Shown: positions 1 through 63,130 of the stretch, one piece after another
How the letters are laid out: every line of letters starts with the position of its first letter
Numbering within the stretch: position 1 is the stretch's first letter
From: Geosiphon pyriformis uo1
Lineage: Eukaryota; Fungi; Glomeromycota
Assembly: GCA_016748015.1 (NCBI GenBank)
Contig: JAAOMT010000591.1
Span: 199,532-263,531, forward strand
DNA: 64,000 nucleotides
Direction of reading: 5' to 3'
Program-made: the position numbers and the translations under genes
The notes under the pieces: model-generated
The model's database searches: none
What the model saw: the letters and a program-made list of their open reading frames with translations, nothing else
What the model was told of the DNA's origin: nothing

Positions 1-1079
1 AAATGGAGTAACCAAGGAAGATAGCTACCCAACTCCAAAAATCTAAAAACTTTTCAACACTTTTGGAAGGAAGAAATAGTTTTCAACTCTAGACTTAGAC
101 AGTGGTTACTGACAAGTGGCCATGAAACCAGAAAACAAAGAGAAAATGGCTTTTATAACTTGAAAAAGAAATTTTGAATTTGAAGTTATGCCATTTGGTT
201 TGATGAATGCTTCTGTCATCTTTTAATGGCTTATGGAAATCATTTATACTAGACTGCTATGGAATCAGTAGTTGTATATCTGGATAATACCAATGTGTTC
301 TCTAAGACATTCAATGATCATTTATATCATTTCCAGCAAGTATTTAAAAGACTAAAAAGAGCTGAATTAAAATTGAATGCAACTAAATGTTTCTTTAGAA
401 AAACCAAACTCAAGTTTTTGGAACATGTTGTGAGCAAAGACAGTATTAAAATGAATTCAGACAAGATTGAGGTAGTTAAGAACTTTTCAGTACCAACCAA
501 CTTAACCAAACTAAGAGCATTCCTGGGATTTGCTGAATACTACTACCACTTTATCAAAGACTTTTCTAAACTGGCTCAGCCATTACACTAGCTTCAATCA
601 AAGAACACCAAATATAAATGAATAGAAAACCAGCAAGAAGCATTCAACATATTAAAAAGAAAGTTTATTCAAGCTCTAATGTTAATGTATTCAGATTACA
701 GCAAATCATTCATTATCACCACCAATGCATCAGGCCAAGTATTGGGAGCAGTACTATTACAGAGAGGACTAGATAGAAGAGAACATCCAGTAGCATATGC
801 CAGCCAAAGTTTGAGTCCAGCAGAAAAGAACTATAGAACACCAGTATTAAAACACTTAGCAATCTACTAGGCAGTTATGAAATGAAAAAAATACTTAAGC
901 CAGAAATTTGACATATATATTGATCACAAAAGATTGACATCAATTCAGAAACAAGAATTTAAAGATAATTGTCATGCTAGATAGAAAATAGAACTGTCAC
1001 TATTTAATTATACAGTACATTACAAAAAAAGAAAAAAAATGGAAATGCCAATGGCTTGTTATGAATGACACAAATCTAA
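1..1079 (+). pseudogene. E1 RT-RNase H end of ORF1
   Basis: ORF fragments 259-591 and 679-870; stop TAA 1077-1079 just after the NADGLSR-like motif. Confidence 0.9.
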
Positions 1080-1109
1080 AAACATTTCAACCCAAAAATA
1101 TAACAAAAA

Positions 1110-2492
1110 ATAAATATACAAAAATACCAACAACTCTAATATTACATAAATATCCAATTGTTCAAGGAGAAATTATCTCAAAAAGAACAAAATAACATAA
1201 AACAACAATTAAAATATTTTATTAACCATCAAAATATACTTTACCAAAAGAACAAAAGAAATTCAGATCAACTAACCAGAGTAATTACAGAACCAGAGAA
1301 AGAGACAATATTATTCAACATGTACTCAAATCCAACAGCAGAACATTTTCACAAAGAAGCAACCATGAAAAAAATCAGAAAAAGATACTATTAGCCATCT
1401 ATGTATCCAAACATCATTCAATATGTTCAAAATTGTGATGCTTGTCAAAAAAAAAAAGGAACAAAGCTAAGTGAGCTATTAAAACCAATCAAAGTGGGAC
1501 AACCATTTGATTACATTGAAATTAACTTAGTCAGACCATTGACAATAACCAGTAGAGGAAACAGATATATTGTAGTAGCCATGAACTATCTTACAAAATG
1601 GCCAGAAGCAAAAGCCATTCAAAGAACAGATGCAAAATCTGTTGCCAAATTTATTTATTAAGATTTGATCTGTTAATACAGATGTCCAAAAAAGCTATTA
1701 TTAGACCAAAAAACTTACTTTGTAAACAAAACATTGGCAGAATTAAGTCAAATATTTGGAATCAAAAGACCATTATTGTTACCATACCATCCACAAACAA
1801 ATGGGTTAGTCAAAAGGTTTAACAGAACATTGTATAAAGCAATTGCCAAAATTAGCCAAAAAAATCAAGACGAATGGAATTTGTTCATACCATTAGTATT
1901 ATTTGCTTATCAAACAATAAAACAAGACACTACACAAACAACATCATTTGAATTGGTATATGGCAGAACAGCAACACTACCAGTTGAGATAGAAGTCAAA
2001 ACATATTCAACAAAACCAATAACAGAAGAAAATTTCCAAAGAATATTGTTAAGAAGAATATATGACTTAATAGAAACACTAGAAAACAAATAGCAAAGAG
2101 CAGTTGGTAACATCCAAAAGTTACAAGAAAAACAAAAGAAAAAACATAATAACCAATTACCAGATAAACCAGTTGAATTCAGGATTGGAGACAAAGTACT
2201 TTTACATTGTACCAAAGCAAAAAAACAATGGAGTGGAAAATTTAATCCCAAATGGAACAGACCATTTCACATAGAAAAAATTCTAGGAAATGGAACTTAT
2301 AAATTAAGATGGGACAATAAAATCTTAGCTAAAGCAGCACATAGTGATTAACTAAAACCATATTACTATATAGTATTACCATTCAACAATAATATTCCAC
2401 AATTGGGAGTACAGAGAAAATTAGTCCAACCAGATGAGATTTCACGAGATCTAGAAACAATTATTGTTATCAACACAAATACATCAAATTAA
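1110..2492 (+). pseudogene. E1 integrase (zinc-binding, rve core, GPY/F-type C-terminus, no chromodomain seen)
   Basis: ORF fragments 1158-1394, 1401-1661, 1734-2093; KWxxPF..LGNGTYKL; ends TAA 2490-2492. Confidence 0.9.
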
Positions 2493-2515
2493 TTGACCAA
2501 AGAATATATAAAGAC

Positions 2516-3175
2516 ATGGTAGATGCAACAAAAAATATCAAAAAAATGGAAATTACTGATGACATTCACTCATTAGCACAACAACTCTTTCAGTTAATTC
2601 AACAACAGAATATAGAAATTACTATCAACCAAAAAATCATTCGATACAAAAATACTAGAAAGATACACAAATACAAAATACAGAAAAAACCAGAAAACAC
2701 CATCGACAAAATAATTCTGAAAGTAAAATTAGCAATAGAAAAACCAACAAGTATTACCACATATCAAGAATTAACCAAAGAAACTTAGAAGTGATGAATA
2801 CAAGAATTTTTAAAGAACTTTTGTTATTTTCACTTGGGATAATATTTGAATATCCAAAATTTATATATAAATAAGACAAAGTGATTATTCAATCCAGAAA
2901 TATTACAATAACTTGAACAATTTGTGAGGAAAAACAATCTAACTACACAAGTATGAGCCATTTATTGATTACAAGTTGGATTTCAAGACTGACCAAAAAT
3001 ATTACACAATTCAGCAATGGACTCTATTACCATTAACCAAATGGGAAAAATAACTAATGTCCAATTTGAAAAATTACAAAACAAGATAACACAAGTAATT
3101 TTTGAAAAAGAAGTTCAAGAAATACTTAAAGACAGAGAATTAGAATTAGGAGATCTCGACAGAACTCAATATTAA
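2516..3175 (+). pseudogene. E1 ORF3, 220-codon accessory protein of unknown function
   Basis: ATG 2516 to TAA 3175 in one frame, broken only by nonsense codons; homologous to 6398-7057 and 47202-47921. Confidence 0.8.
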
Positions 3176-3189
3176 AAAAGAGAGAATAA

Positions 3190-4130
3190 TATTACTTATA
3201 GAATATAGAAAGTATATTATCATATAAATTAGCCAATCAGAAGTAGACATAGTAAATGTGGAATTCCAGAATTCCTCTTAAAAAAATTGCAGGATTCCAG
3301 GAATTTCAAAATTCTCATATGAAAAATTACAGGATTTCAGGAATTTCAAAATTCTCGTATGAGGAATTGCAGGATTCCAGAATCTCAGAATTTCTCTTAA
3401 AGAAATTACAGAATTCCAGAAATTCCAGGATTCCTGGTGTGAAAAATTAAGGAATTAATAAATTTCAATTAGGTATATATAGCAGTAGCATTAAAAGTAG
3501 AATTAGTACAAAAGATCTCTTAGTTTAGATTTAATTTAAGCAATCTTCTACATTATAAATATCAAATAAATAATTATTCATTATCTTAAATCTACTCTTT
3601 ACTATCAACTCTTCATATTGATAGTAATTAATACTTAAACATACTGAAACAATAGCTCTTAATTACAGTTATTAACAGAATATTAGCATTTATTGTCTTG
3701 GCTTATTTTTTTATTTTCTTTTATTTTTTTTTATTTTTTGTTATTTTTTTTGTTTTACTAATTGATTGAAAATTAAGTGTTGAATTATTGATGTTAAGGA
3801 TAGCCTGGTAAAAAACCCCAAAAGAAAGGTATGAAATTAAGAATTTAAGGATAACTTATCAGAAGAACATTTCTGTCAGATTACTGACCACTATGCTAAG
3901 AAAGAAATTTGATGAAATTGCGATTCTAGGAGGCTATTAAAACACTATTGAATCTCTGTTCATTATATAAAAAACTCAACCAAAATCTTCAGTCAACCAA
4001 AGCTTTTAGACAACCAAAATCTTTAGACAAACAAAACTTTTAGAAACCAACATCATCATCATCAAATCAATTGAGCACCAAGTTATAAGTTTGTTATTTG
4101 CTTTAAGATCCCAAATAATTATCTGTAACA
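3190..4130 (+). repeat. E1 3' LTR
   Basis: TATTACT (from TGTTACT) ... TGTAACA; CCAAT box, tandem array 3258-3436, TATA ~3474; homologous to 5515-6384. Confidence 0.9.
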
Positions 4131-4781
4131 GCATTTTACTTACTTGTAGAAGTCTTTTACCAGGCAATCCTTGACATCAATAACTCAGTGCTTAATCTTT
4201 AAAAGTTTAGTAAACCACCAACAAGATACAACAAAATAAAAAAATAAAATAAAAAAAATTAAGTCAAGACAATAAAAGTTAGCATCTCATCAATAGCCAT
4301 GATCAAGAGCTATTGTTTCCATGTAGTTTAAGTATCAATTATTATCAATATTTAAAGCTGATAGTAAGCAATTGGATTTGAGATGTTGAATAAGTATATT
4401 TATTGATATTTTAGAATGATATATTTCTAACTAAGAATAGTAATTAATGAATTTTTGTCTGGAAATTCTCCCTTTTTCTGCTTTTAATACAACTGCTATA
4501 TATAGATATTTTCTAGTTTTACAGAATTGTTTTGAATTGTCTGTTCTTGCTAGCTATTGCTTCATTTTCTTATGTTATAACTAATTATCCTATGTTATAA
4601 TATGTTATCTGACATTATTACATGTTATTCTGTGTTATCCTGCATTATAACACATTATTCTATATTATAACACATTATCCAACATTATTGTATATTATTT
4701 TGTGTTCTTTCATGTTTTATCATGTTTTTTAGATCATGTTTTTCCTTCTTTTTTTGATCAGCTTTCTTTCTTCAAATAACA
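4131..4781 (-). repeat. Family-A-related LTR with a different U3 array, interrupted by E1 and itself inserted in E3
   Basis: 4150-4400 is the reverse complement of the LTR core at 3560-3830; ends TAACA at 4781, after which E3 integrase sequence resumes. Confidence 0.75.
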
Positions 4782-5514
4782 ACATGTTAAACAATATTGT
4801 TTCTTTTTTTAATTTTATAATTACTTTAAGTAATTGGTTTGAATTTTTTCTGTTTTTTTAATATAGTATATTTTAATAAGTAATAAAATATTTTGATTGT
4901 TGTTTTATATTGTTTTGTTCTTTTTAAACAAATTTTTTCTTAAACTGTTAAGTATTAATATAATGTTGGAGTTGTTAATATTTTTGTGTATTTATTTTTT
5001 GTTATATTTTTGGGTTAAAATGTTCTTAAATTTGTTTTATCTATAACAAACCATTAGTATTTCTATTTTTTTCTCTTTTTATAATGTACAGTATAATTAA
5101 ATAGTAATAGTTCTATTTTCTATCTTGCATGGCAATTGTTTCTAAATTTTTGCTTCTAGATTAATATTAATCTTTTGTGATTAGTATATACATTAAATTT
5201 TTAATTTAAATATTTTTTTTATTTGATAACAGTTTAATAAATAGTTAAGTGTTTTAATATTAGTTCTATAGTTTTTCTCTGCTAAACTTAAATTGTGGTT
5301 GGCATATGTTATTGGATGTTTTTGTTTATCTGTTTTTTTTTGTGACAATACAGCTCCCAATGCTTGACCAAATACATCAATAATGATAATAAATAACTTG
5401 CTGTGATCTAAACAGATTAGTACTAGAGCTTAAATAAGCTTTTTTCTTAATATGTTAAAAGCTTTTTGTTGGATTTTAGTCGATTTATATTTAAAATTTT
5501 TTGCTTGTAGCTGG
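4782..5514 (-). mobile_element. E3 (old family-A element), RNase H to integrase N-terminal segment
   Basis: Collinear with 8250-9010; reading frame rejoins 15713 across the E2 insertion (KLAQLLYQ|LQAK). Confidence 0.85.
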
Positions 5515-6384
5515 TGTTACAGGTGACTATTTCTGGTGTTAGATTAAATAACAAACTTATAACTTGGTGCTCAAATCTAGTTGTAGTTGATAGTGATCTA
5601 AAGGTTTGTGTCTAAAAGGTTTGTATCCAAAGGGTTTGGTTGAGTTCTTTGTATAATGAACAGAGATTCAATGGTAATAGTTTTATCCATAGTTTTTTGA
5701 AACCACAGTTTCATCAATTTTTTTCTCAGCTTGATGGCCAGTATTCCTCCTGGTAAGCTATCTTCAATCGAGTGTTCTACCCTTATTTCTGGGTCTTTTA
5801 CCAGTCATGTTTATCCTGATATCAGTACCCCGCATGTTAATCCTCAATAGAGTTAGTAAACAACAATAAAATCAAAGCAAGAAATAAAAAAAAATAAATA
5901 AATAAAGAAAGAAAAAAAATAAGCCAAGGCGATTTGCAAGTTAGTATTCCATCAATAGCTGTGATCAAGAGCTATTGTTCCAGTGTGGTTAAGTATTGAT
6001 TATTATCAACATGAAGTGTTGATAGTGGCAGCAAGTTTGAGATAACAAACAGTTATTTATTTATGGTTTGGAAAGTTGTTCAGATGAAATCTAAACTGAG
6101 AGGTCTGTTTTTTTAGCTTCTAATCTTACTGCTATATATACATAATTGAGATTCCTCAATTTCTCAATTCTTCACAACAGGAATCTTGGGATTTCTGGAA
6201 TCCTGCAATTCCTTTAAAAGGAATCTTGAAATTCTGGAATCCTGCAATTCTTTGTGAGAATCCTGTAATTCCTAGAATCCTGCAATTCCTGAGAGGAATC
6301 CTGGAATTCCACATTTTACTACGTCTACTTCTGATTGGTTAATAACTATGCTAATATATATTCTCTATATTTTTATGAGTAACA
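5515..6384 (-). repeat. E2 3' LTR
   Basis: TGTTAC...GTAACA; about 93% identical to 14842-15712 by hand alignment; PPT adjacent at 6385-6399. Confidence 0.97.
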
Positions 6385-6397
6385 TTATTCTCTCCTT

Positions 6398-7057
6398 TTA
6401 ATATTGAGCTCCATCAAAATCTAACTCTGTTAATTCTCTTTCTTGAAGTATTTCCTGAATTTCATTTTTGAGAATTACTTGTGTTATTTAAGTCTGTAAT
6501 TCTTCAAATTGAGTATTGGTGATCTTTCCTAATTGATTATTGGTAACCATATCCATTGCTTTGTTGAGTAAGATTTCTGGTTGATCTTAAAATGCTGTGT
6601 GTATTTGGTATATGGCTCGGGTCTGTGTGGATAAGTTGTTTTTTCCCAAAAAATGTTCTAATTGTTGTAGTATTCTTGTGTTGAATAATCACTTTGTTTT
6701 ATCTGTATATAAATTCTGGATATTTACGTGTTGTCCCAAGTAAAAATAACAATAATTTCTTGGAAATTGTTGTATCCACCAATTCCAAGTTTTTTTAGTC
6801 AACTCTTGATATAGTAACTCTTTTGTCAACTCTTTTATTGCTAATTTTACTTTCATAATGATTTTGTCAATGGTATTTTCTGTTTTCTTCTGTGTTCTAT
6901 GTGATGATGTCTTTCTAGTGTCTTGATATCAGATGGTTTGTTGATTAATTGTAATTTCCATCTCTTGGTGTTGAATCAATTGAAAGAGTTGTTGTGCTAG
7001 TAAGTGGATGTTGTCTGTAATTTCCATTTTTCTGATATTTTTTGTTATGTCTACCAT
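6398..7057 (-). pseudogene. E2 ORF3, 220 codons, unknown function
   Basis: MVDITK..MEITDNIHLLAQQLFQLIQ ... YFxLG ... DFDGAQY*; same length as the E1 copy. Confidence 0.8.
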
Positions 7058-7081
7058 GTCTTTATATATTCTTTTGATGAA

Positions 7082-8463
7082 TTAATTTAACGTGTTGTTG
7101 TCAATAATGATGATTGGTTTCAGATCTTGTGGAATCTCCTCTGGTTGGACTAGTATCTTCTGTATTCTTAATTGTGGAATATTACTGGTGGATGATGGTG
7201 TGATATTGTGGTATGGTTTCAGTCAATTTTCATGTGCTGCTTTGGTTAAAATTTTGTTATCCAGTCTTAATTTGTAAGCTCTATTCCCTAGAATTTCTTC
7301 TATGTGAAATGGTCCATCCTATTTGAGGTCAAATTTTCCACTCCATTGTTTTTCTGCTTTAGTACAATGTAAAAGTACTTTGTCTTCAATCTTGAATTCA
7401 ACTGGTTTGTCTGGTAGTTGATTATTATGTCTTTTTTCTGTTTCTTTTGTGACTTTTGTATATTATCAGCTGCTCTTCTTCGTTTGTTTTCCAATGTTTC
7501 TATTAAGTCATATGTTCTTCTTAACAATGTTTCTTGGAAATTTTCTTCTGTTATTGGTTTAGTTGGATATGTGTTAACCTCTATCTTAACTGGTAATATT
7601 GTTGTTCTACCATATATTAATTCAAATGATGTTGCTTGTGTGGTGTTTTGCTTCATTGTCTGATAAGCAAATAATACTAATGGTATGAACAAATCTCATT
7701 TGTCCTGGTTTTCTTGGCTGAGTTTTGCTATTGTTTCATACAATGTTCTATTAAATCTTTTAACTAATCCATTGGTTTGTGGATGATATGGTGATGATAG
7801 TGGTCTCTTAATTCCGAATCTTCAGCTTAGTTCTGCTAATGTTCTATTCACAAAATAGGTTCTTTGGTCTGATAATAGTTCTTTTGGACATTCATATCGA
7901 CAAATCAAATTTTGATGGACAAATTTGGCAACAGATTCTGCATCCGCTCTTTGAATTGCTTTGGTTTCTGGCCATTTAGTAAGATAGTTCATGGCTACTG
8001 CAATATATCTGTTGCCTCTGCTGGTAATTGTCAATGGTCCAACTAAATCAATTCCAATACAGTCAAATAGTTGTCTCACTTTAATTGGTCTTAATGGTTT
8101 GCTGGGTCTTGTTCCTTCTCTTCTTTGACAAGCATTACAATTTTGCACATATTGAATGATATCTGGATACATTAATGGCCAATAGTATCTCTTTCTGGTT
8201 CTTTCCATGGTTGCTTCTTTATGAAAATGTCCTGCAATTGGATTTAAGTACATGTTGAACAGTATTGTCTCCTTTTCTGGTTCTGTAATTACTTTGGTTG
8301 GTTGATCTGAATTTTTTCTATTTTTCTGATAAAGTATATTTTGGTAAATGATAAAATATTTGGATTGTTGTTTAATTCTCTTTTGTTCTAGTTGAGATAA
8401 TTTCTCCTTGAACTGTTGAGTATCTATATAATGTTGAAGTTATTGATATTTTTGTGTGTTCAT
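7082..8463 (-). pseudogene. E2 integrase ORF with its own ATG (MNTQKYQ)
   Basis: GHF..CNAC, GIDLVGPL, SDQ, YHPQTNGLV; ORF fragments 7822-8253 and 7300-7692. Confidence 0.9.
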
Positions 8464-8524
8464 CTTTTGTTATATTTTCGTGAGTATTGTTTTGGTTTTG
8501 TTATATTTTTGGATTGAAATGTTC

Positions 8525-11500
8525 TTAAATTTGTCTCATTTGCGACAAACTGTCGGCATTTTTGTTGTCTTTTCTCTTTTTATAATTTATAGTATAAGTA
8601 TATGTCGAAAGAGCCATTTTCTATCTTGACTGTTTTCTGTCTTCAAATTCTTGTTTTTGGAGTAATGTCAATCCTTTGTGATCTGTGTACACCTCAAACT
8701 TTTGGCTCAAGTATTCTTTCCATTTCATAACTGCCCAATAGATTGCTAGATGTTCTAATTCTGGTGTTCCATAGTTCTTTTTGGCTGGAGTCAAACCTCG
8801 GCTGGCATATGTAACTAGATGTTCTCTTTCATCCAATCTTCTCTGAGATAGTAGTGCTCCCAATACTTGACCTGATGCATTAATGGTAATAATGAATGGT
8901 TTACTATAATCTGAATAGATCAATACTAAAACTTGAATAAGCTTTTTTTTTAAGATGTCAAATGCTTCTTGCTGGGTTTCAGTCCATTCATACTTTGCAT
9001 TTTTGGTTTGAAGATTATTGAGTGGTTGTGCTATCTTTGAAAAGTTCTTTATGAAGTGTTTATAATAGCTCACAAATTCCAAAAATGATTTCAGCTCAGT
9101 TATATTGGTTGGTATTGGAAAGTTTTTTACTATTTCTATTTTCTCCAGATTTGTTTTTATGCGGTCTTTGCTAACTATATATTCCAAGAATTTTAATTCT
9201 GTTTTGCCAAAAAAACATTTTGTTGCATTTAATTTTAATCCTGCTCATCATAGTCTTTCGAACACTTGTTGGAAATGACGTAGATGATCATCAAATGTTT
9301 TTGAAAACACATTGGTGTCATTCAAGTATACAACTACTGATTTCCACAATAAGCTGGTATACACAATTTCTATTAACCATTGGAATGTAGCTGGAGCATT
9401 AATTAAGCCAAATGGCATAACTTCAAACTCAAAGTTTTCCTTTCTTGTGGTGAATGCTGTTTTTTCTTTGTTGGCTGGATCCATAGTTATTTGCCAGTAC
9501 CCACTATCCAAGTTTAATGTTGAGAACCATTTGTTTCCACTAAAAGCATTAAATAGTTTTTGTATCTGTAGAGTTAGATAGCTGTTTCCATGAGTTACAC
9601 CATTGAGTTTTTTGTAGTCTACACAAAATTGGATTTTTCTATTCTTCTTACAGACAAGTACTACTGGTAATGACCATGGGCTCATTGATGACTGAATTAA
9701 TCCATTGTTAAGCATTTGGTTGATCTTTTGACGGATAATTTCATGGCTGGCTGGTAGTATCCTATATGCTTGCTGTTTGATTGGCATTACATTTCCAGTC
9801 TTAATCTGATGCTAGATAATATCAGTTCTGCCAAATTTGTTTTCACTGGCAAAGATGTCATTGAAATTATTAAGTAACATCTTTAGTTGCATCTATTGAA
9901 GTGGGTCTAGATTTCTCATGTTCATCTGTTTCAATTGTTTTGGCTGTAACAGATAACATTCATTTCGTCTATAGATGGTTTGTAATGTAATATCCACATA
10001 TTCACAAAGCTGTGAAAAATCTGGAATGCTGCTTGGTGCTTGATTTTCAATTTCCGTGGTTAAATATTCGAAAGTAGTTCCTTTCAGTATCTCTACAATA
10101 TTTCCGGTGTTGTTGTAGATGGGAATTTTGATATGGTTATGGCTTTTGGCTGGTATGTGTAGATTGATAAGTCCAATTTCTCTTGATTCACAAAGGGTTG
10201 CTTCTGCTTCAAAAATCTGTTCTTGCTTCTTCTCTCTCCTTTCTATTGCTAACATGTATTGGCTATATGGTGGAATGGAAATTGTTTGACCAGTTGAAAT
10301 AATTTCTCCTTGGCCAATAATTTTTTCCTCCACCATATTGACTGGTACCTCTATTCTACCCATTGATCCAAATCTCTGTATCCCTTTTGCTGTTATCCCT
10401 AATTCTTTCCTATTTCCCACTAAAACTAACTGAGCTATTTTCACCAGAGACAGGAATATTGCCTGTGCTATCCTTTTATTTGGCTTTATAACATAGGCTT
10501 TTTCTGAGTCATTTTGTAGCATAGCAATAATATTTCCTACATATCCTGCATTAATTATTTCTCCTCTGATGTTTATTCTCTTTTTCGCTAAACTACTCCT
10601 AGATGCTAATTGAACCATTATTGTTGCTAGAATTTTCAGTGCTATTTTCAGATCAATGCAAGTGCACAAATGGGGTTCCAATTTGATGGTATTTTTTTCT
10701 AGATATCTTAGATCAAATTCTGCATTAGTATTATGCACATGTTCTGGCATGATACCTTCATTATTATTACTGAATCATTTTAGTTCTTGCTCCTTGGTGA
10801 GGTCAGGGAGTGTAATATATTGTTTGTAGTTTGAATTGGAGTTTGAATCTGAGTTGGAATCATTGTCATTGTTATAGCCATTTTGAATGGAGCTGGAACC
10901 ATTATTTTTGTTATCATTATTGTCAGAGTTTGAATTGGGGTTGAAACTCAATTCCAATTCTGATGCACAGCTGTTAATTGGTTTTTTTTCTTCGGGGATC
11001 ATGTAAATCATGCATGGTAGTAAATTGTAGATGAGGTCACAATCATCACAGAATTAGAAGTCACATAGAATCAAACAGTAGTCACATAATCAGGTGTTGA
11101 TTTCTTCTAAGTGTTGCTCTTGCTCTTCTCTTGTGAGTGCTAAATTCTGATAATGTATGGAATTCTTCTGGGCTGTTTTCTAAGTCGATAAAGGCATCTG
11201 GGTTGAGAACCAAAACAATGTCTGTTGGTTCTGGAGGGTTATTCTTGATCTCCAGAATTTCACTGAGTGAAATGCCTTCTACTTTGGCATTGGCCATTCG
11301 CCAGATCTCGTCCTCGTCATGTGGATAGCCATCTAGGTGGGATATAGCTCAGTGCTATGCTGCTGTAATGGGTGTACCACAACTCACCTAGTCACTGATG
11401 AAGATTATGTATTGGCATGAAGCGTCGCATGTTTCTCCTTGACCAGGAATGTTGTTCCACATTTCTTCACTGAGTAATTATTCACCACAAGCGAGACATG

Positions 11501-14500
11501 ATTTATTGTCCTACTTGTCTTGTCTTTTTGGGTAGTCATATTATTCCCTATGGCAGGGCTTGCAATAGTAATGGGTTTGTGTTCAGTAGTCTTCGTCTAG
11601 TACTACCCAAGCTCCCATTGAGAACAGTTTCTTCCCACAGTCTTTGCATTTGAGAGGTATATATGGCAGCTCTTTTATTGGTTCACATGAGTATTCTCTT
11701 TCCCAGCCATTAGTTATTTCTCCTGCAGTGGTGGTTTCTTCAGGTATGTTTTTTTCCCCTTTTTCCTTGCTCTTTTCTTTCCAATCTAGAATTGGTGGCA
11801 TTTTGCTTTGGTTGTTGTCAGTCCAAGTGTCAATGGTGGCTTCCCAAGTAGGTTCTTCTTTTTGTTTTTCCTTTCTATTGTTGTTGTTGTCCTAAGCAAA
11901 TATTGGTGGCAGTTCATTGTAGTCAATGTTAGCCCATAAGACTTGGTATGCTTCCTAAGTGGGTTTCACTTTTTCTTCTTCGAATTTGATAAGTGGTGTT
12001 GATAGGGTGGTGATGGGCTTGAAGTGGCCACACATGGCTGGTACCCATGTGTGTCGACCGTTCTGGCTAAGCTGGAACTCTTGGGTGTTCCAATCTAGGA
12101 TTGTATTGGTTTTGGACAGCCAGTTATTTCTAATGAGTGCTTGGTATTGAATGGCTTCCATAATAAATACTTTGATTGGTACTATGATGCCATTGACTTT
12201 TATGGGGAAATCATCAATCTCTCCAATGGGTGTTTTGGTCACTCCATCAGCTGTAATAATCCTGGTGCTGGCAGCGCGATTAACTTAGTGACCTAATTAA
12301 TCTATGAATTGTCTTGTGATAATGCTGCCAGCTGATCCACTATCTAGGATCAGTTTGATAGAGTGACTATTAACTTTCACATTAGTGTACATTACAGTAA
12401 TGGGTTTTTTCTCAAGTGCTGCTCCACTGAACAATGGTGGGTTGATGGTTTCTTTTAATTCGAAAGGAAAGATGGTGGTGAGAGTTTTGTTTTCAGTAAC
12501 TGTTGCTGATGGAATGTTGCTGGTGAGTGGTGGTTGTTGGTTGTTTTCTGGATGATTGGATTGGGCATCTTCTGGAGTCACCAGGAGACTTAAATAGTTC
12601 TGGGTGTAACTGGTGCCCAAATTCTGAGATCACAACCCTAATGGTGGGGTTGATGAGCTGGAGATCAGTTGATGGACAACCATTGCTGATCTCCAGTTTT
12701 GGGCGACTCTTGATCTGGGGTTTCCTGATGTCATCTAAGTGGAGTTTGGTAGTGGTGTTTGTATTGCAGTTGGTTGATATATTATTTGTGGCTGTGGCTG
12801 ATACATTGTTTATGGCTGTGGTTGATAGACTGGAGTTTAATATATTGGCAGTTGATATATCAGCTGTTGCGTCATTGGTGGATAAGAATATTGACTTTGA
12901 TTTTGTTGATATCTCAGAGTTCGAAACTGGCGATCGGGGTTTCTATATTGATTTCCTGATTGTTGGTTATTTAAATGGGTACGGCAGTCGATTTGTAGGT
13001 GTCTTTGTCTTCCACAATAGTAGCATGTATGCATTTCTTGTTGCCACTGTTAATTGGTTAATAAGAATGAACACAACTAATTCTGGAAACAATTGGCGTT
13101 TTCCTGATTATTGTGTTATTTTGGAGGTTGATAAATTGCCTGATTGTTAACTAAGTATCCCTCAATTTTCTGATTGATGGAATCACTAATTTGCTTTAAT
13201 TTGGAACCCAAATCAGATGATCCATTCATCACTAGATTTACAGCTTGGGCGTGATTGGTTTCTAGCTCAGCTGCTTCAAAATCTCTAGCTTGGGTGACTG
13301 CAGTAGGGAGGTCAACTGGATGCATTGGGCATACTTATTGGAGGATGCTGCTACATAACCCTCTGATAAACTGGTTCAAGATCTGTGGTGCCATAAAATA
13401 ATCAGCTTGGATTGTCTGAATTTGGTGCAGATTTCTATGAAAGTGTTCTAAGTAAGTGGTGACTGCTTCTGTGTCCCCTTGTTTAATGGTAGTGAAGATG
13501 TTGGTCAAGTAATTAATACTGTTATTATTACTAAAATATCTTACAAACTCTGTTTTGAAATTATTGAAGGTTTGGGGTTTGGCAACTAGACTCTAATACC
13601 ACGAGTCGGCAGTATCTTTGAGAAAGTATGGAACAGCTTGTATTGTCCTGGCATCATTTCATCCATTGGCTGCAATGGCTTTTTCGATGTTGTTGAGCCA
13701 GACTTGGGTGTCATCTTCTTTGCCAGTAAAATTGTCGATTTTGGCGATTGGAGCATAGGCCATTGGATCTAAGTTTAGTTGCTGTTGTTGGATGAATGGC
13801 TGAAATGATTGTTGTGGCTGGTAATTTGGCTGCTAGGGTGGTTGTAAATTTTGCTAATTTGGCAGCTGAATTGGTTAGAGCAATTGTTGTAGTGGCAGTC
13901 CAATGGGTTCAATTGGTGGGTGATCAATAACAATATTCGGAGATAAGTTTGGATTAATTACTCCAGAGTTTTGATTGTCTTGATTTAGCAGTGTTCTAAT
14001 ATTTGGAGTTTTGATTTCGGGGTTTTCTTGATTTGGATTTTTCAGAGTTTAATCATTTGAGATTTCAAATTCTGGGTTTTCAGGAATCGGGTTTTGGTAA
14101 GTAAACTCTTGATCTTCAGATTTTTCTTCTTCCTCTTCTTCTGATTCTGTTACTTCCCACAGATCAGAAATTCCAAAATCTGGGGAAGACAGTGGTGATC
14201 AGAGTCCTGATGGCATTGATAATCGTGAGTTAAATCCTTCAAAATACATGCCATATGATTCTAATAATTCTGCTTTCCTTTGTTTACTTTGGAATGGGAA
14301 TCGTCCAAATGCTGATGTCATGTTTGATGTGGATGCGCTGGTAAATGTAATATTAATAGTGCTTCCAAGTGTATAGTGATATAATAGATTAGTTGGGAAC
14401 TCAACTCTTGTTTTCTTCCAAGTAGGTGGTTGTATTCTTTTGGATGTTACTGCTGGTGTTTGCAGTTTTTCTTTGCCTTTGCTTGTGTAAGTAATGGGAT

Positions 14501-14820
14501 ATCTTTACTATGTATGGTGTTCAATTTTTTTGTTGATTTCTATGATAATAAAGGCGAAATTGTGATTTGTTGGCAGGTTGGTATTTTGAATTAATTTACT
14601 GTAAAAAGCTTTTCTTGCCAATTCGATATTTATTAGTGTTCCTAACAGATAGACAATTCTTTTGTTGATGTAGAAATTGAAAGCTGATTCTGCTGATATG
14701 TGGTTGTGATTTAATCCCAATGTTGACAGTAGTGTTAAAATAAAGATTTTGCGAATCCTAAATAGTTTGCTCTTATGTTTTCTGATTCTGCCACTTTTAG
14801 ATTTATTCTCTATAGGATTA
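8525..14820 (-). pseudogene. E2 ORF1: gag-CCHC-aspartic protease-Cys-rich domain-dUTPase-RT-RNase H
   Basis: CYYCGRQRHLQIDC knuckle (~13000), LILDSGSAGSII (~12340), CKDC cluster (~11640), dUTPase, RT 9248-9787, RH 8621-9187; start position approximate. Confidence 0.9.
10357..10750 (-). pseudogene. dut: dUTPase domain within E2 ORF1
   Basis: Trimeric dUTPase motifs 1-5 recognisable: AEFDL, SRSSLA, IINAGYVGNI, RIAQAI, KGIQRFGSMG. Confidence 0.9.
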
Positions 14821-14823
14821 TAC

Positions 14824-14841
14824 CTTACAGGGAGCACCAAA
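14824..14841 (-). promoter_or_regulatory. E2 primer-binding site TTTGGTGCTCCCTGTAAG
   Basis: Directly follows the 5' LTR; complementary to a tRNA ending ...GGAGCACCA (candidates are elongator Met or Ile-UAU; identity is inferred). Confidence 0.85.
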
Positions 14842-15712
14842 TGTTACAGGTGACTATTTCTGGTGTTGGATTAAATAACAAACCCATAACTTGGTGCTCA
14901 AATCTAGTTGCAGTTGATAGTGATCTAAAGGTTTGTGTCTGAAAGGTTTGTATCCAAAGGGTTTGGTTGAGTTCTTTGTATAATGAACAGAGATTTAATG
15001 GTAATAGTTTTATCCATAGCTTCCTGAAACCACAGTTTCGTCAATTTTTTTCTCAGCTTGATGGCTGGTATTCCTCCTGGTAAGCTATCTTCAATCGAGT
15101 GTTCTATCTTTATTTCTGGGTCTTTTACCAGTCATGTTTATCCTGACGTCAGTACTCCGTGTGTTAATCTTCAATAGAGTTAGTAAACAACAATAAAATT
15201 AAAGCAAAAAATAAAGAAAAATAAAGAAAATAAAGAAAGAAAAAAAATAAGCCAAGGCGATTTGCAAGTTAGTATTCCATCAATAGCTGTGATCAAGAGC
15301 TATTGTTCCAATGTGGTTAAGTATTGATTACTATCAACATGAAGTGTTAATAGTGGCAGCAGGTTTGAGATAACAAACAGTTATTTATTTGTGGTTTGGA
15401 AAGTTGTCCAGATGAAATTTAAACTGAGAGGTCTGTCTTTTTAGCTTCTAATTCTACTGTTATATATACATAATTGAGATTCCTCAATTTTTTAATTCTT
15501 CACAACAGGAATCCTGGAATTTCTGGAATCCTGCAATTCTTTTGAGAGGAATTCTGGAATTCTGGAATTCTGTGATTCTTTGTGAGAATCCTGTAATTCC
15601 TGGAATCCTGTAATTTCTGAGAGGAATCCTAGAATTCCATATTTTACTATGTTTACTTCTGATTAGTTAATAATTATGCTAATATATATTCCTTATATTT
15701 CTATGAGTAACA
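14842..15712 (-). repeat. E2 5' LTR
   Basis: Direct repeat of 5515-6384; flanked by the PBS and TSD. Confidence 0.97.
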
Positions 15713-18428
15713 CTGGTAAAGTAGTTGAGCTAATTTAAAGAAGTTTTGGATGAAATAGCAATAATATCTAGCAAATTTCAAAAATGTTCTTAATTTTGTT
15801 AAGTTTGTTGGTACTAAAAAGTTTTTAACTATTTCATATTTGTTTGAATCTGTTTTGATGCCATTTTTGCTTGCAATATGTTCCAAAAACTTGAGTTTAA
15901 TTTTGTCAAAAAAGCATTTAGTTGTATTTAATTTTAATTTAGCTTTTTTTAATCTTTCAAACACTTGTTAAAGATGATGTAAATAGTTATCAAATATTTT
16001 GAAAAACATATTGGTGTTATTCAAGTAGACTATTACTTATTTCCATAGTAATCTAGTGTATTCAATTTCCATAAGCCATTGAAAAATAGCTAAAATATTA
16101 GTTAAGCCAAATAATATAATATCAAATTCAAAATTTTTTTTTGGTTATAAATGCTATTTTTTTCTTGTTAGCTGGATTAATGACTACTTGCCAATAACTA
16201 TTATCTAAGTCCAATATTAAAAACCATTTTTTTTCTTCAAAAGCATTAAATAACTTCTGTATCTATGAAGTTAAATAGCTGTTTCTATAAGTAATATTGT
16301 TAAGTTTTTAGTAATCTATACAAAAATATATCTTTCTTTTCTTTTTCTGGATAAGTACTACTGGTAATAACCATGGGCTCATTAATAATTAAATTAATCT
16401 GTTGTCTAATATTCTGTTGATTTTCTGTTAGATAATCTTATAACTGGCTGGTAATATTCTGTATATTCTTTGTTTAATTGATATTGTACTTCCAGTTTTG
16501 ATCTGATATTGGATAATATCAGTTCTGCCAAATTTATTTTTACTGGCAAAAATATTAATAAAGTTATTAAGTAGTATTTTAAGTTGCATTTGTTAAAGTA
16601 AGTCTAAGTTTCTTAAGTTTATTTGTTTTAATTATTTTGGCTGTAACAAATAACACTTTTTTTATTTATATATGGTTTGTAATATAATGTTTATATATCT
16701 GCAAAGCTGTAAAAAGTCTGGAATAATAATAAATGCTTGATTCTCAACTTTAGTGCTTAAGTATCTAATAATAATTTTACTTGGTATTTTAGTAATGCTT
16801 TTAATTGTGTTTTATATTGGAATTTTAATGTGTTTATTGTTCTTGGCTAATATATAAAGATTAATAATAGCAATTTTTTCTGATTTACAAATATTTATTT
16901 CAGCTTTAATAATTTGGGATTGGTTTTTCATTTTTTTTTTTATAACTATTATATACTAGTCATATAGTAAAATAGAAATTAATTGATGAGTAAAGATAAT
17001 TTTTCTCTTATTAATTGTTTTTTTTTCTGTTATATTAACTGATATGTCTATTCTATTCATTGATCTGAATCTCTTTATTCCTCTTGCAATAATTCCTAAC
17101 TCTTTTCTTGTTCTCACTAATATTAACTGAGCTATCTTAACCAGAAACAGAAATATTATCTGTGTTATCTTTTTATTTGATTTAATTATGTATCTTTTTT
17201 TTAAGTCATTTTGTAGTATTATAATAATATTTTCTATATATCCTGTATTAATTATCTCTTTTCTGATATTAATCTATTTTTTTGTTAAACTAAATCTAAA
17301 AGCTAATTGGACTATTGTTATTGCCAGAATTTTCAGTATTAATTTTAAATCTATGCTAATGCATGAATAAAATTCTAATCTAATAGCAGTTTTTCTTAGA
17401 TATCTGAGATTAAACTTTGTATTTGTATTATACATGTATTTTGGCATAATATTTTCATTGTTATTGCTAAACCATTTAAGTTTTTGCTTTATTGAAAGAT
17501 CTGAAAGCATGATATACTGTTCAGAGTTGTAATCAGAGTTTAAATTATTGTTGTTGTTATTGTTATAGTGAATAGAATTAGAATTATTGTTGTCATCATT
17601 GTTAGAATTTGAATTACAATTGATCTTTAATTCCAATTTTGATGTACATTAGTTGATTGGTTATTTTTCTTTGGAGATTAAATAGATTATATATAATAGT
17701 AGATTATAGATGAAATTATAGTCATTACAATATTCGAAGTTATTTGAAATTAAATAATGTTTACAAAGTCTAGTATTTAATTGTTTTAAATACTGCTTTT
17801 GCTTTTTTCTAGTGAGTGCTAACTCTTGGTAATGTTTGTGAAATTGTTCTAGATTACTTAAGATATCAAAAAATGCATCTGGATTGGGAATAAAAATGGT
17901 TTTGACAGGTTCTGATAAGTTGTTTTTAATGATAAGTATTTTATTGAATAAAACACCTTCAACTTTAGCACTTGCTATTTGCCAAATTTTGTTTTTATTA
18001 TGTAAGTAATCATTTAAGTATGAAAGTGCTCAGTTCTATACAGTATTAAAAAATATTCCTTAGCTCATTCAGTTACTGATAAAAATTATGTATTAACATG
18101 ATGTATTACACATTTCTTTTTAGTCAGAAATGTTGTTTCACATTTTTTTGTTAAGTAATATTTCTTTACAAGTAAGACATGATTTATTGTTCCACTTTTT
18201 TTGTCACTTAGGATAACCAAAGTATTCTTTGTGACATGGTTTGCAATAATAGTAAGTGCATGTTCAATAGTTTTTATTTGGCAAAATCCAAGCTCCCATA
18301 AAGAAAAGTTTTTTTTTGTAATTAATATATCTAAGTAGAATATATGACAGTTCTTTTTTTGTATTTATGGAGTATAATTTATTTTAACCATTGGTTATTT
18401 TTTTGGTAACTGTAATGACTTTTGGCTT

Positions 18429-18462
<34 letters not shown>

Positions 18463-21400
18463 TCATTCCAAAAAAGTATTGGCAGTAATTTGTTGTGTTT
18501 ATTCTTAGTCCACAAAACTTGATAGGCTTTCCAGATAAATTTTTTTTTCAAACTCAATTAGTGGTAATTGGATGGTAATGTTTATTTTAAAGTAGCTGCA
18601 AATAGCAGGTACTCAAGTTTGCTGACTATTTTGACTAAACTATAACTCTTGATTATTTTAGTCAAGCATAATACTGGTTTTAAACAGTCAGTTATTATTA
18701 ATAAGAGTTTAATACTATATGACTTTTATTATTAAAGCCTTAATAAGTGCTATAATTCTATTAACTTTAAATAAAATATTGTTGATTTTATTAATAGAAG
18801 TTTTTATTATTTCATTAGCTATGATAATTTTGGTACTGGCAGTGCAATTAATTTGGTGATCTAATTGGTTCATAAGTTGTTGAATGATGATGCTGTCTGC
18901 TGAACTATTATCAAGGATTAGTTTAATAGAATGACTATTAATTTTGGTATTAGTATATATTATTGTAATAGATTTTGTGTTAAGAATGGCTCTATTGAAT
19001 AAAGATGGCATTGTTAATTCTTCTATTTTAAATGAAAATATAACTATAAGTAATTTGTTTTCAGTAATAGTTGCTAGTAAAATATTGTTAATAAGTAGTG
19101 TTTTTAGGCTTTTTAAGTTATTGGATAAGCTGGTTTCTAAGGTAACTAGGAGACTTAAATAGTTTTAAGAATTTGGATTTTGGGAGTACCTACTTTTTAA
19201 ACTTTATTGGCATAATTCTGATGACTGATTTGATGAATTGAAAATTGATTGGTATATTATTATTGCCAATTTCCAATTCTGTTGTATGTGAATAATTCTT
19301 GATCTTTGGTTGCTAATTAATATTTAAACTAGGTTTTGGAATGATGTTTGAATTGGTTAAAGTAAATAAATGATTTGTGGCTATGGCTAATAAATAACTG
19401 GTGCTAAAGTTTAATATACTAGAAATAAGTATATTAGTTATTATATTATTGGGGTGTAATAAGGTTGATATTGTTTTTGATTTAAGATATAAAACTAGTA
19501 ATTGAAGTTTTAATATTAATTTCCCAATTATTGGTTATTTAATCTTATACAGTAGTCTAATTTTAAGTGTTTTTATTTATTACAATAGTAACATATACAC
19601 ATTTTTTGTTATCATAATTGATTGTTTGATAAAAATAATAGACATAATTAATTTTGGAAACAATTGAAGTTTCTTTAATTGTCATAACATTGTAGAGACT
19701 AATAGATTGCCCAATTGTTAGTTAGATATTTCTTGATTTTTTAATTAATGGCTTTGCCAAATTGTTTTAATTTAATATCTAATTTAGAAGATCTATTCAT
19801 TACTAGGTTGACAGTTTGGCATAGTTGGCTTTGAGTTCAGCCAATTCAAAATTTCAGGTGTATATAACTGTGTTCTAGAGAGTATTTGGATCCATTAAAC
19901 ATACTTATTGTAGAAGACTACTGCATAATTTGCAGATAAACTGGTTCAAAATCTGGGTTTTAATAAAGTAATTAGCTTAAATTGCTTAAATTTGATGCAG
20001 ATTTCTGTAAAAACATTCTAAGTAAGTAGTAACTGCTTCTGTGTTATCTTATTTAATTATGGTAAAACTAGTTAATAATTGATTAATGCTGTTGTAATTG
20101 CTAAAGTATTATAAAAACATGGTTTTAAATATGTCAAAGATTTGTGGCTTGTTAACAAAGTTCTAATATTATAAGTTAGCAGTATTTTATAAGATATAGA
20201 GAATAACTTAAAAAGCTCTGATATTATTCTAATTATTGGCTGTAATTATCTTGGTAATATCATTCAACTATGTTTGGACATTTTTTTTTTTACTGGTAAA
20301 TTTTTTGAGTTTGACAATGGGTGTATATGCTATTGGTACTAGTTGTTATTGTTGTTGAAGTTGTTGTTGTAATAGGGCAATTAATACAACTGGTAAATCA
20401 ATTATGATTATTGAAAATAAGTCTTGCTGAATAATAGAAGCAGAGTTTAGATTGTTTATGTTTTGTGAAATTTGAACAATCAAAGTTTGTGTTTCTGGTT
20501 TATTTAGAATTGAGTTTTGGTTATTATTTTTTTAATTACAGTTTTTTTTCTTCTAAATTGGTATTTTTCCAATAATTAGTAGATCTAAAATTTGGTTGAG
20601 GTGGTAGTAATCAAAGTTTTGATAATATTGTTGATTGTGATTTAAATTTTTTAAAGAAATTGCTATAAATTCCTAATAATTTGGCTTTCTTTTGATTATT
20701 TTGAAATAGAACTTAAAATAATAGTATTTTTATAGTTAATAGTAATATAATTCTTAATAATATATATATAATACTTTCTGGTATATAATAGTATAATGGA
20801 TGAATAGGTAAAATAACTCTTGGTTTTTTCTAATTAAGTAATTGTATTTTTTTTGGTGTTTCTGTTGAAGTTTGTAAATTTTTCTTATCTGTAAAAATAA
20901 TAAAAAATCTTTAATGGGTATATTTTCCAATTTCTTTGTTTATTTCTGTGATTAGTAGTACAAACAAATAGTTTGGTAGAAATGTAATGCTTTAAAATAA
21001 TTTGCTGTAGAAATTGTTAAGGATGGCTTTTGGATTTTTTTGGTCTTCCAAATAAGATTTAATTTTTTTATTGACATAAAAATTAAAAGCTAATTCTGCT
21101 AACCAACTGTTATTTGTTAATCCAAGGTGACTTTAATAATATTAAAATAAGAATTTTGCAAATTTTAAATAATTTTCTTTTATAATTTCTTGGTCTGCCA
21201 CTTTTCTGGATGATTAATGTTGGTGCTAGTTCTCTGTTAGGTTATACTTTACAAAGAGTACCAAGTATTATAAATGTTTATTTGAAGTGTTAAAACAAAT
21301 AACAAACTTATAACTTGGTATTTAATAGTTAATAATGTTGGTAATTTCTAAAGATTTTAGAGTTTGAAAGTTTTGATTGAGTTTTTTGTATAATAGACAA

Positions 21401-22188
21401 AGATTTAATTAATGATTTCTTCTGTAAATTTTTTTTTTCAACATAATAGCCAGTTTAGTCTGATAGTTATATCTATCTAATAAGTTATCCTTAAATTTTT
21501 ATTCTTATTTTTGGGTTTTTTACCAAACTATTCTTGATGTCAAATACTTAGTACTTAATCTTTTTAATCAATTAATAAACAACAAAAAAATAAAACAAAA
21601 AAAAATAAAAAAAATAAAAAATTAGTATTCTATTAATAGCTATAATCAAAAGCTATTGGTTCAGTGTAGTTAAGTATTGGATTCTATCAACATTAAGTGT
21701 TGATAGTGTAGAATTGATTAATATTTCTTAATCAAGTAATAAAAACATAGATTTTGGATAATAATTGATATTTTATTAATATGTGTGTAAATTTTACTTT
21801 AAGTTATAAAAAATTATCTTTTAAAAAAAAGAAATTTAGATAATTAATAAGTTTTACTAATTTTGTCTGTATTGATTCTGTCTTTTTTACTTCTAATATT
21901 CTTGCTATATATACATAATTTTTGTTATATGAGATCTCATATTTTTTTAAACAATATGTCCTATTTTCTCTGACAATGTGTTTATTGTTAAACAATATGT
22001 CATAATTTTCTGACAATATGCTCATTGCTGAGCAGTGTGCTCTAATTCACTAACAATATGTACATTATTAAGCAATGTATTATATTTTTTTGATATTGTG
22101 CATTTTTACTAAGTATTTTTCTTCTATTGATTTATTTTTCTATTTGTTTTTTTTATTTTTCTTTCTTGTATTTTTTCTATAAGTAATA
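15713..22188 (-). mobile_element. E3 (old family-A element): RT, dUTPase, Cys-rich domain, protease, gag, PBS and 5' LTR; heavily AT-shifted; inserted in the gag of E4
   Basis: Collinear with E2; LILDNSSADSII (~18900); PBS relic ~21248-21265. Confidence 0.9.
21266..22188 (-). repeat. E3 5' LTR
   Basis: Shares the R/U5 core with other family-A LTRs; ends mutated to TATTA.../...GTAATA; own ~40-bp U3 tandem array 21945-22110. Confidence 0.85.
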
Positions 22189-28100: not shown

Positions 28101-28921
28101 ACTATTTAACATGCATTCAGATCTAATAGCAGAACATTTTCATAAAAAAGCAACTATGAAAAGAACCAAAAAAATACTACTGGTTATCTATATCTCTAAA
28201 CATTATTTAATATATTCAAAATTGTGATACTTGTCAAAAAAAAGAAAAAACAAAACCCAGTAAATTATTAAGACTATTAAAGTGAAACAACTATTTAATT
28301 AAATTGGAATTGACTTAATTAAACTATTAATTATAACCAATAGAAGCAATTAATATATAACAGTAATCATAAACTATTTTACAAAATGGCCAAAAACAAA
28401 AGCAATTCAAAAAGCAGATGCAGAATTTGTTACCAAATTTGTACACTAATATTTAATTTGTTAACATAGATGTCTAAAAAAATTGTTATCAAACCAAGAA
28501 ACTCATTTTGTAAACAAAACATTAACAGAATTAAATTAAAGATTTGGAATTAAGAAACTATTATTATTATCATATTATTCACAAACAAATGGCTTAGTCA
28601 AAAAGTTCAACAGAATATTGTGTAAAATAATAGCCAAAATTCAAGAAAACCAAGAACAAATAAAATTTATTTATATTATTAGTAATATTTGTTTATTGAA
28701 CAATAAAGCAAAATACTATATAAGCAACAATATTTAAACTAGTTTATGATAAAACAGCAATATTACAAATTGAAATAAATATTAATATATATTTAATAGA
28801 GCCAAAAACATTGTTAAAAAAAACATATGACTTAATAAAAACTTTAGAAAACAAAAGACAAAAAGCAGCTGATAATATACAAAAGTTATAAGCAAAACAA
28901 AAAAAATAACATGATACCTAA

Positions 28922-33510: not shown

Positions 33511-33714
33511 GGTTTTTTTTAAACCCAATTGATTTTATATTCAAAATATTTAATAAATTAATTAAAACTAATTTACTTTACAAATATAAATAAATAAATT
33601 TAAATTTAAATTTAACCATTAAAAATTCTCGTTATCTGAGATCATCCTATATGCATAAATGATAATGCTCTTACAAAAAAAGATTACGCGCAAACAGCTT
33701 TGCAATTTATTGAA

Positions 33715-37445: not shown

Positions 37446-37478
<33 letters not shown>

Positions 37479-39853: not shown

Positions 39854-39984
39854 TTCAAATTATAGGAGATAATTTGAAGATAAATTCAGTTATTGGAGGT
39901 TCAACTACTTCTAGAAAACGTAAATTTGCAACCAACAGGCAGTTACAACATTCAAGAAAAGAGACCAAAAACCTCCGGTAACAT

Positions 39985-45648: not shown

Positions 45649-45699
45649 AAAACACAAAAACCAACACTCAACTTAACCAACCAAAAGAGCCAACAAACA

Positions 45700-47084: not shown

Positions 47085-47201
47085 TTTAATTTTACTAGTT
47101 ATTCCCTTATAATTTAGAAACAATCTCACAAAAACAAAGCAAAAATAACATAAAAACCCATACACCAAAAATAATTTTCTTTTATTTTCAAATCTCTTAT
47201 A

Positions 47202-63125: not shown

Positions 63126-63130
63126 AAGAG

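Follow-up and report, generated by a model that had tools for sequence, protein, structure and literature searches.

Directional C-to-T decay of transposons in Geosiphon pyriformis, like RIP in outcome and without its CpA preference

The closest described counterparts of the decay reported here are repeat-induced point mutation (RIP) of Neurospora crassa and other Pezizomycotina (RID, DIM-2), the Dim2 mutator of Zymoseptoria tritici, the CpG decay of repeats in Basidiomycota, and the cytosine methylation of Phycomyces and Rhizophagus irregularis. We analysed one window, a stretch of 64,000 nucleotides on contig JAAOMT010000591.1 of the Geosiphon pyriformis assembly GCA_016748015.1. Geosiphon belongs to the Glomeromycota, outside the Dikarya, and is thus the early-diverging host that a first-pass annotation of the bare sequence had supposed. 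The window holds a Ty3/Gypsy retrotransposon, called E2 here, whose two long terminal repeats (LTRs) differ almost only by C/T and G/A transitions.

With RIP, the decay in Geosiphon shares the restriction to C:G to T:A changes, the confinement to repeats, damage by nonsense changes and at catalytic sites, the presence of intact genes next to AT-rich relics, and one strand-skewed LTR. It differs from RIP in having no CpA preference, negative RIP indices and no clusters of hits, and it goes far below the GC levels that RIP usually leaves. The Zymoseptoria mutator (Moller et al. 2021, PMC8016269) is alike in that >95% of its changes are C>T, only methylated repeats are hit, sex is not involved, and non-CpG sites are targets; Zymoseptoria is an ascomycete, and the corresponding enzyme in Geosiphon is putative. 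The CpG and TpCpG decay of Basidiomycota with DNMT1/Masc2 has CpG as its top target and leaves CpG-depleted repeats, as here, and the known 5′-T preference of Pucciniomycotina resembles the 5′-pyrimidine bias of Geosiphon (PMC3318451, PMC4352252). In the related fungi Phycomyces and R. irregularis, the same targets are reported in the same order, CG > CHH > CHG, with H being A, C or T (PMC11258239, PMC8298701); those reports concern methylation, whereas the Geosiphon data concern mutation.

A screen of 1,239 genomes by Badet and Croll found the RIP signature only in Ascomycota (PMC12543289), and Geosiphon is absent from its species table and from the 12 of 19 supplementary files searched. According to Dallaire et al. 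(10.1101/2021.03.30.436303), neither Gigaspora margarita nor Mucoromycotina yielded RIP signatures. The accessible text of a transposon survey of arbuscular mycorrhizal (AM) fungi mentions neither RIP nor the present spectrum, and the accessible parts of PMC13443276 and PMC12344493 contain nothing relevant to this decay. In the literature on Glomeromycota we found no report of it; two Geosiphon genome papers may mention it.

E2 is one Ty3/Gypsy LTR retrotransposon, located at 5515–15712 on the minus strand. Its parts are as follows.

14842–15712, minus strand: 5′ LTR, TG...CA, carrying 30 of the 59 transitions (24 C>T and 6 G>A, read on the plus strand)
5515–6384, minus strand: 3′ LTR, TG...CA, carrying 29 of the 59 transitions (15 C>T and 14 G>A, read on the plus strand)
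5511–5514: target-site duplication CTGG, left copy
15713–15716: target-site duplication CTGG, right copy
14830–14841, minus strand: candidate primer-binding-site-like stretch, starting with TGG, beside the 5′ LTR
6385–6399, minus strand: polypurine-tract-like stretch preceding the 3′ LTR
11180–14261, minus strand: gag, with zinc knuckle, aspartic-protease-like and Cys-rich regions; 26 in-frame stops
10382–10756, minus strand: dUTPase domain between protease and reverse transcriptase (Pfam PF00692, E=5e-15)
9248–9811, minus strand: reverse transcriptase (RT; Pfam PF00078), with the catalytic motif YLND at 9317–9328
8621–9244, minus strand: RT connection and RNase H (Pfam PF17919/PF17917)
7300–8439, minus strand: integrase, H2C2 zinc finger and core (Pfam PF17921; rve under the cut-off); 2 in-frame stops

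The TG...CA repeats, the target duplication, the primer-binding site, the polypurine tract and the order protease, RT, RNase H, integrase are together what defines a Ty3/Gypsy element. No tRNA genes were found within the window. The three gag regions were named from familiar motifs and are presumably what these motifs indicate; the E2 gag also aligns to that of E5, a copy of a second Gypsy family, which scores Retrotrans_gag. A dUTPase lies between protease and RT in both families by Pfam (10382–10756, minus strand; 43180–43878, plus strand), and an Atlas search confirmed the dUTPase only. The order Gag-protease-dUTPase-RT-RNase H-integrase is that of the dUTPase-bearing Ty3/Gypsy elements of Postia (PosPlaTy3-5), Phanerochaete and Tuber (PMC2864245). 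A tie between the dUTPase and uracil or deamination pressure is speculation. Both families also have a Cys-rich stretch between protease and dUTPase (11200–11700, minus strand; 42600–43200, plus strand).

The LTRs of one insertion are identical at the start, by the mechanism of reverse transcription. On either side of E2 lies one half of an older Gypsy copy, the two halves being collinear, and together with the intact CTGG duplication this shows that the LTR pair stems from a single insertion. We aligned the two LTRs globally (5515–6384 against 14842–15712, 870 columns). The first-pass annotation had counted about 60 differences in about 870 bp, all transitions but for one A-tract site, and the alignment reproduced this with 59 transitions (39 C/T, 20 G/A), one transversion and one 1-nt indel. 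The transversion and the indel are neighbours within the A-tract, near position 5899. A proportion of 59:1 is improbable even at a true transition/transversion ratio of 4 (p=2e-5), and the 95% lower bound on that ratio is 10. The Kimura two-parameter (K2P) divergence is 0.074, of which transversions account for 0.0012; dating by LTR divergence is therefore invalid here, as the annotation had warned.

For the context counts, C/G was taken as ancestral where either LTR carries C/G. Differing sites make up 10/18 at CpG, 15/111 at CpA, 12/69 at CpC and 22/112 at CpT, and the last three rates are indistinguishable (p=0.47). The CpG examples quoted in the annotation are present at 5739/40 and 5820/21. 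Sorted by methylation class, hits fall at 10/18 CpG, 9/73 CHG and 40/219 CHH sites. Hits at CpA, CpC and CpT had also been described as frequent, and 49 of the 59 transitions are indeed non-CpG. The process had been called context-relaxed, which is right in that CpA, CpC and CpT are hit alike, but it is not context-free. CpG is about 3.7-fold hotter than non-CpG, and among non-CpG cytosines 39/175 are hit after a pyrimidine versus 10/119 after a purine (p=0.002), a way of counting that can inflate CC. The context ranking is CpG > YpC > RpC, where Y is a pyrimidine and R a purine. The corrected rate per LTR copy is 0.33 at CpG and 0.088 elsewhere, and non-CpG C>T is at least 50-fold over the upper bound for transversions. 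The pair implies an equilibrium GC of 1–5%. Plain decay of methylated CpG predicts that CpG is depleted and fastest, as found, and that non-CpG sites change at the background rate, which they do not. The decay is stronger than CpG decay can explain.

The direction of change was polarised in three ways. In a family test, contigs of the public run X1 were placed on each LTR (12,686 and 13,188), and 40 of 202 variant places were used for one LTR and 40 of 42 for the other. Among the places so used, the C/G letter makes up 35% or more at 39 of the 59 LTR sites and the majority at 36, of which 31 are non-CpG; it is uncontested at 9 further sites. The other sites include three in the A-tract, which the contigs leave uncovered, six ambiguous ones (two of them CpG) and one CpG that is already mostly T. 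Family-wide, the variant places comprise 189 transitions and 13 transversions. The two E2 LTRs share about 10 non-CpG T/A letters where C/G makes up 40–93% of the family depth. This exceeds the double-hit expectation, so the parent of E2 probably transposed while already partly mutated.

A second test used 67 RT columns with conservation of 80% or more across 70 outside proteins, against six window copies. None of these 70 hits of the RT protein search is a named Geosiphon or AM-fungal RT copy, and they serve as outgroup only. In 332 site-copies there are 90 departures: 72 are of the C>T/G>A kind only, none is the reverse, 6 are transversions and 12 are ambiguous. A uniform null would give 12% C>T/G>A, 15% reverse and 70% transversion. 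In 51 G. pyriformis long interspersed nuclear element (LINE) proteins, which come from many different contigs, the C>T/G>A class accounts for 63% of single-step changes versus 10% under the null; the figure for the outside RT set is 29%. YLND or YLDN also occurs in 11/51 RT motifs of the outside proteins P0052–P0121, and some of these may reflect a similar C>T process. The annotation had foreseen that the non-CpG excess might disappear on polarisation. It persists in the X1 contigs, the RT columns and the LINE proteins. The change is directional, C>T/G>A, and its non-CpG excess survives polarisation.

The body of E2 (35% GC) carries matching damage. There are 38 in-frame stops among 2338 codons, and gag-pol has three frame changes. 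Stops had been attributed to CAA, CGA and TGG codons; 10/38 stand opposite TGG and 6/38 opposite CAA/CAG in at least one paralog; the remaining 22/38 are unassignable or lie in divergent stretches, a few of them opposite codons that would require a transversion. At the LTR rate, about 20 stops are expected from Trp and Gln codons alone, with CGA codons uncounted. With 38 observed, the body was thus hit at least as hard as the LTRs. The reported damage to the YLDD motif is present as described, with YLND in E2 and YLDN in E1, E4 and E5, and the host copy split by E2 has YLNN.

The window contains one single-copy gene, which served as control.

33715–35900, plus strand: intact gamma-tubulin gene, 453 aa, 11 introns; observed/expected CpG 0.99 over the span

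The repeats range from 0 to 0.26 in the same measure. The coding sequence of the gene holds 68 CpGs versus 59 expected; across codon boundaries there are 25 versus 23 expected, and the E2 pol has 3 versus 26 expected. The introns have 29% GC and 10 CpGs versus 15 expected, and fourfold-degenerate sites are 42% GC. CpGs start at 33630, just beyond a LINE relic ending at about 33621, and cease by 36015. This argues for a decay confined to repeats, as far as the window's one single-copy gene shows. The gene sits among transposon relics with sharp CpG borders, and one of its introns is GC-AG (35674–35748).

Other transposon copies in the window form a graded series of decay.

1–4012, plus strand: E1, Gypsy copy, pol end and 3′ LTR; 28.5% GC
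4100–5514, minus strand: right part of the host Gypsy copy split by E2; 22% GC
15713–21935, minus strand: left part of the host Gypsy copy (H3); 23% GC, 1 CpG, 227/490 conserved C:G pairs changed to T:A
22197–31529, plus strand: E4, Gypsy copy; 21% GC, 263/584 conserved C:G pairs changed to T:A
59885–63190, minus strand: E6, Gypsy copy; 23% GC, 167/332 conserved C:G pairs changed to T:A
39900–47100, plus strand: E5, Gypsy copy of the second family, likewise with dUTPase; 36% GC
31530–33621, minus strand: LINE ORF1 and 5′ relic pieces; about 20% GC, with its end about 95 bp short of the tubulin start codon
52489–53981, plus strand: LINE RT relic, end state of decay; 9% GC, no CpG

In H3, E4 and E6, C:G transversions amount to 2–4% and reverse changes to 3–5%. 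Conversion is even across CpA, CpC and CpT, with a non-CpG loss of 45–50% in these old copies, and the 5′-pyrimidine trend of the LTRs recurs (TCA 0.54, TCC 0.55, ACA 0.27, ACT 0.30). Surveys of Basidiomycota, in contrast, saw little or no excess outside CpG (PMC3318451, PMC4352252), compared with 49/59 non-CpG transitions and this non-CpG loss in Geosiphon. No usable LTR pairs were found for the host copy, E4, E5 or E6. The 9%-GC LINE relic could be matched to 57343–58909 by a purine/pyrimidine alignment, with a score of 384 versus at most 75 for 6 shuffles. The two are 54% identical and differ by 346 C/G-to-T/A changes against 42 opposite ones. This relic is nearly at the 1–5% GC equilibrium implied by the LTR pair.

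A tract of 7–16% GC spans 36200–39480. It is probably another fully decayed relic, and it gave no alignment better than shuffles to any element in the window. A non-coding repeat of about 400–500 bp occurs in three copies (28899–29444, 31855–32377 and 39464–39859), in or beside other elements, and two of these copies differ by 53 transitions and 9 transversions. Fragments of the LINE copies at 48400–52600 and 54100–59800 have been deposited as G. pyriformis 'hypothetical proteins', a sign that many annotated G. pyriformis genes are pieces of decayed transposons. A window LINE protein is 99% identical to a predicted G. pyriformis protein, and 51/51 matches are to G. pyriformis.

The first-pass annotation had called the decay RIP-like and repeat-targeted. 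Its direction and its confinement to repeats, judged by the one gene, stand, and the CpA preference, positive indices and clustering of RIP are missing. C:G to T:A transitions are almost exclusive. Repeats alone are affected and the single-copy gene is spared, one gene being judged here by its composition. The single non-CpG dinucleotide preference (CpA) and the positive indices expected of RIP are not seen; the composite RIP index is negative in 12/13 regions, the exception being a 12%-GC tract. We found no clustering of hits, whose density is even in 6 copies (p 0.27–0.80), nor an excess of close pairs in the two LTRs (p 0.79 and 0.15). The most decayed relic is only 54% identical to its relative, counting partners within the window. 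The decay resembles RIP in its outcome, shows no CpA preference and is not classed as RIP, a process that in the mechanistic sense senses homology, acts premeiotically and depends on RID.

We propose that transposon chromatin in Geosiphon would be methylated at cytosines in all contexts by DNMT1/DNMT5- and DIM-2-type enzymes, and that the marked cytosines would be turned into T without homology sensing. We hold this account to be probable, if by a modest measure. A DNMT1/DNMT5-type enzyme would mark CpG in transposon heterochromatin, and a DIM-2-type enzyme would mark CpA, CpC and CpT. Marked cytosines would become T by spontaneous deamination, or with enzymatic assistance of the kind known from the mitotic Zymoseptoria Dim2 mutator. 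Chromatin state, and not repeat pairing, would select the targets, and decay would run until almost no cytosine is left. The ranking CpG > YpC > RpC, the negative RIP indices, the even hits and the 9% GC of the LINE relic fit a process directed by chromatin and methylation at least as well as RIP.

The enzymes in question are on record in relatives. AM fungi are stated to possess DNMT1, DNMT2, DNMT5, DIM-2 and RID, and 32.5–49.5% of cytosines are reported as methylated in R. irregularis (PMC8298701). We infer that CpG sites by themselves would be too few, in an AT-rich genome, to account for this level. Phycomyces blakesleeanus has DIM2 and DNMT1, and its LTR elements are methylated at CG and CHH (PMC11258239; also PMC7862722). 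Methylation there stands at 3.4% for CG, 0.5% for CHG and 0.9% for CHH (PMC11258239); the match of this order to that of the LTR hits is suggestive only. DIM-2 is described as active at CpN of every kind (PMC13297926); in the repeats of Zymoseptoria, Dim2 causes mitotic C>T changes (PMC8016269), and in Trichoderma, DIM-2 marks DNA that is AT-rich (PMC11381340). When metagenomes were scanned with a DNMT1 motif, 10 loci were obtained, all animal-like by translation and none fungal.

Several observations weigh against the methylation-directed account. The annotation had proposed to look for strand coordination. The 5′ LTR is skewed, 24 C>T to 6 G>A (p=0.0013 given trinucleotide context), which fits episodic, strand-coordinated events more than steady decay; the 3′ LTR is unskewed (15:14). 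The family leans the same way as the 5′ LTR, with 74/130 C versus 59/144 G places (p=0.01). Among six internal regions, E4 alone is a borderline case for strand patches (p=0.049) and H3 alone is skewed overall (p=0.017). The strand and cluster results do not all agree; on balance they favour steady decay accompanied by some strand-coordinated events. The Zymoseptoria Dim2 mutator places >98% of its changes at CpA and spares CpG, whereas in Geosiphon CpG is hottest and CpA, CpC and CpT are about equal, with a 5′-pyrimidine bias. Of what a DIM-2-type mutator predicts, non-CpG C>T limited to transposon chromatin is present, and CpA specificity with CpG spared is absent. As to polarisation, the non-CpG site 6190 looks like A>G, four other non-CpG sites are ambiguous, and three lie in the uncovered A-tract. 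X1 may be the source of the window itself, so that it shows copies of the family and not a second isolate. The in-window E1 LTR fails as an outgroup (28 C/G, 22 T/A, 9 other). The gene control is one gene and reflects base composition, not a rate.

True RIP is the next candidate. A RID-type enzyme would sense homology during a cryptic sexual or parasexual stage and produce bursts of C>T in a relaxed context, in addition to ordinary CpG decay. We consider this unlikely, though well short of negligible. The near-pure, repeat-confined C>T/G>A with LTRs equally hit (29 and 30) and the strand skew of the 5′ LTR speak for it, but CpA is the least-hit LTR context, the composite index is negative nearly throughout and hits are unclustered. 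RIP needs roughly 80% identity, and 9% GC was reached in a copy 54% identical to its in-window relative, although closer partners may exist elsewhere; the gene, 95 bp away, shows no visible spill-over. Also in favour of RIP, AM fungi are stated to have RID (PMC8298701), and a RIP-index signal has been proposed, with caveats, outside Dikarya in Entomophthorales (PMC10515909). It is a doubtful proposition, yet a definite one, that Geosiphon and perhaps its Glomeromycota relatives have an active RIP-class defence with a signature of its own (CpG > YpC > RpC, occasional one-strand bursts), driven by the RID and DIM-2 homologues described from this clade. If so, transposons would be ground to <10% GC while staying invisible to CpA-based RIP indices, and the decay would be a molecular trace of cryptic sex in a lineage that has long been regarded as asexual.

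A C>T bias acting throughout the genome, accompanied by few transversions and hidden in the gene by selection, is improbable. Lost translesion polymerases could lower transversions everywhere, and a 2025 preprint describes Glomeromycotina as having lost replication and translesion polymerase complexes (10.1101/2025.09.02.673565); the tubulin introns, at 29% GC, are also somewhat low in CpG (10 versus 15). Such a bias is hard to square with tubulin fourfold sites at 42% GC and undepleted boundary CpG, against an LTR equilibrium of 1–5% GC, or with a CpG content that switches within about 100 bp at the gene edges.

We give little more than an outside chance to a dedicated cytidine deaminase with a YpC preference that edits transposon DNA or cDNA. 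It would account for the 5′-pyrimidine preference (39/175 versus 10/119; TCA 0.54 versus ACA 0.27 in older copies) and for the G>A-ward skew on the element sense strand of the 5′ LTR, and the dUTPase in both Gypsy families would suit it. However, the strands are about equally hit in internal regions, dead relics decayed on long after reverse transcription, and CpG is hottest whatever base precedes it. We know of no such deaminase in these fungi. Artefact or damage (assembly error, library deamination, ultraviolet (UV) light, or LTRs of two different insertions) is very improbable: dipyrimidine C is favoured outside CpG (45/247 versus 4/47) and the 3′ LTR has two CC>TT doublets, but the target duplication is intact with collinear flanks, the 16 contig pieces listed carry 10–34 other letters at depths of 61–187, the gamma-tubulin gene is intact, and UV leaves unexplained that CpG between purines is hit 7/10 and that ACA/GCA stand at 0.27/0.41 in older copies. 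UV, library damage, editing at reverse transcription and a chimera of two insertions were all considered and ranked low.

The observation itself is confirmed as real, polarised and repeat-confined, and a methylation-linked genome defence is likely behind the decay. Published work calls RIP signatures missing from relatives of Glomeromycota and confined to Ascomycota, and this window shows C>T as pure as RIP that is negative by the indices. Divergence-based transposon ages for Geosiphon are inflated. E2 is 7.4% diverged, yet free of transversions outside the A-tract, so its LTR expansion may be much more recent than Kimura landscapes imply; recent transposon peaks are listed only for Glomeraceae and Diversisporaceae (PMC11952901). 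If general, the process would give a function to the RID and DIM-2 homologues and to the very high 5-methylcytosine of AM fungi. It would also supply a cause for their AT-rich repeat DNA and a route to test cryptic sex against a vegetative mutator.

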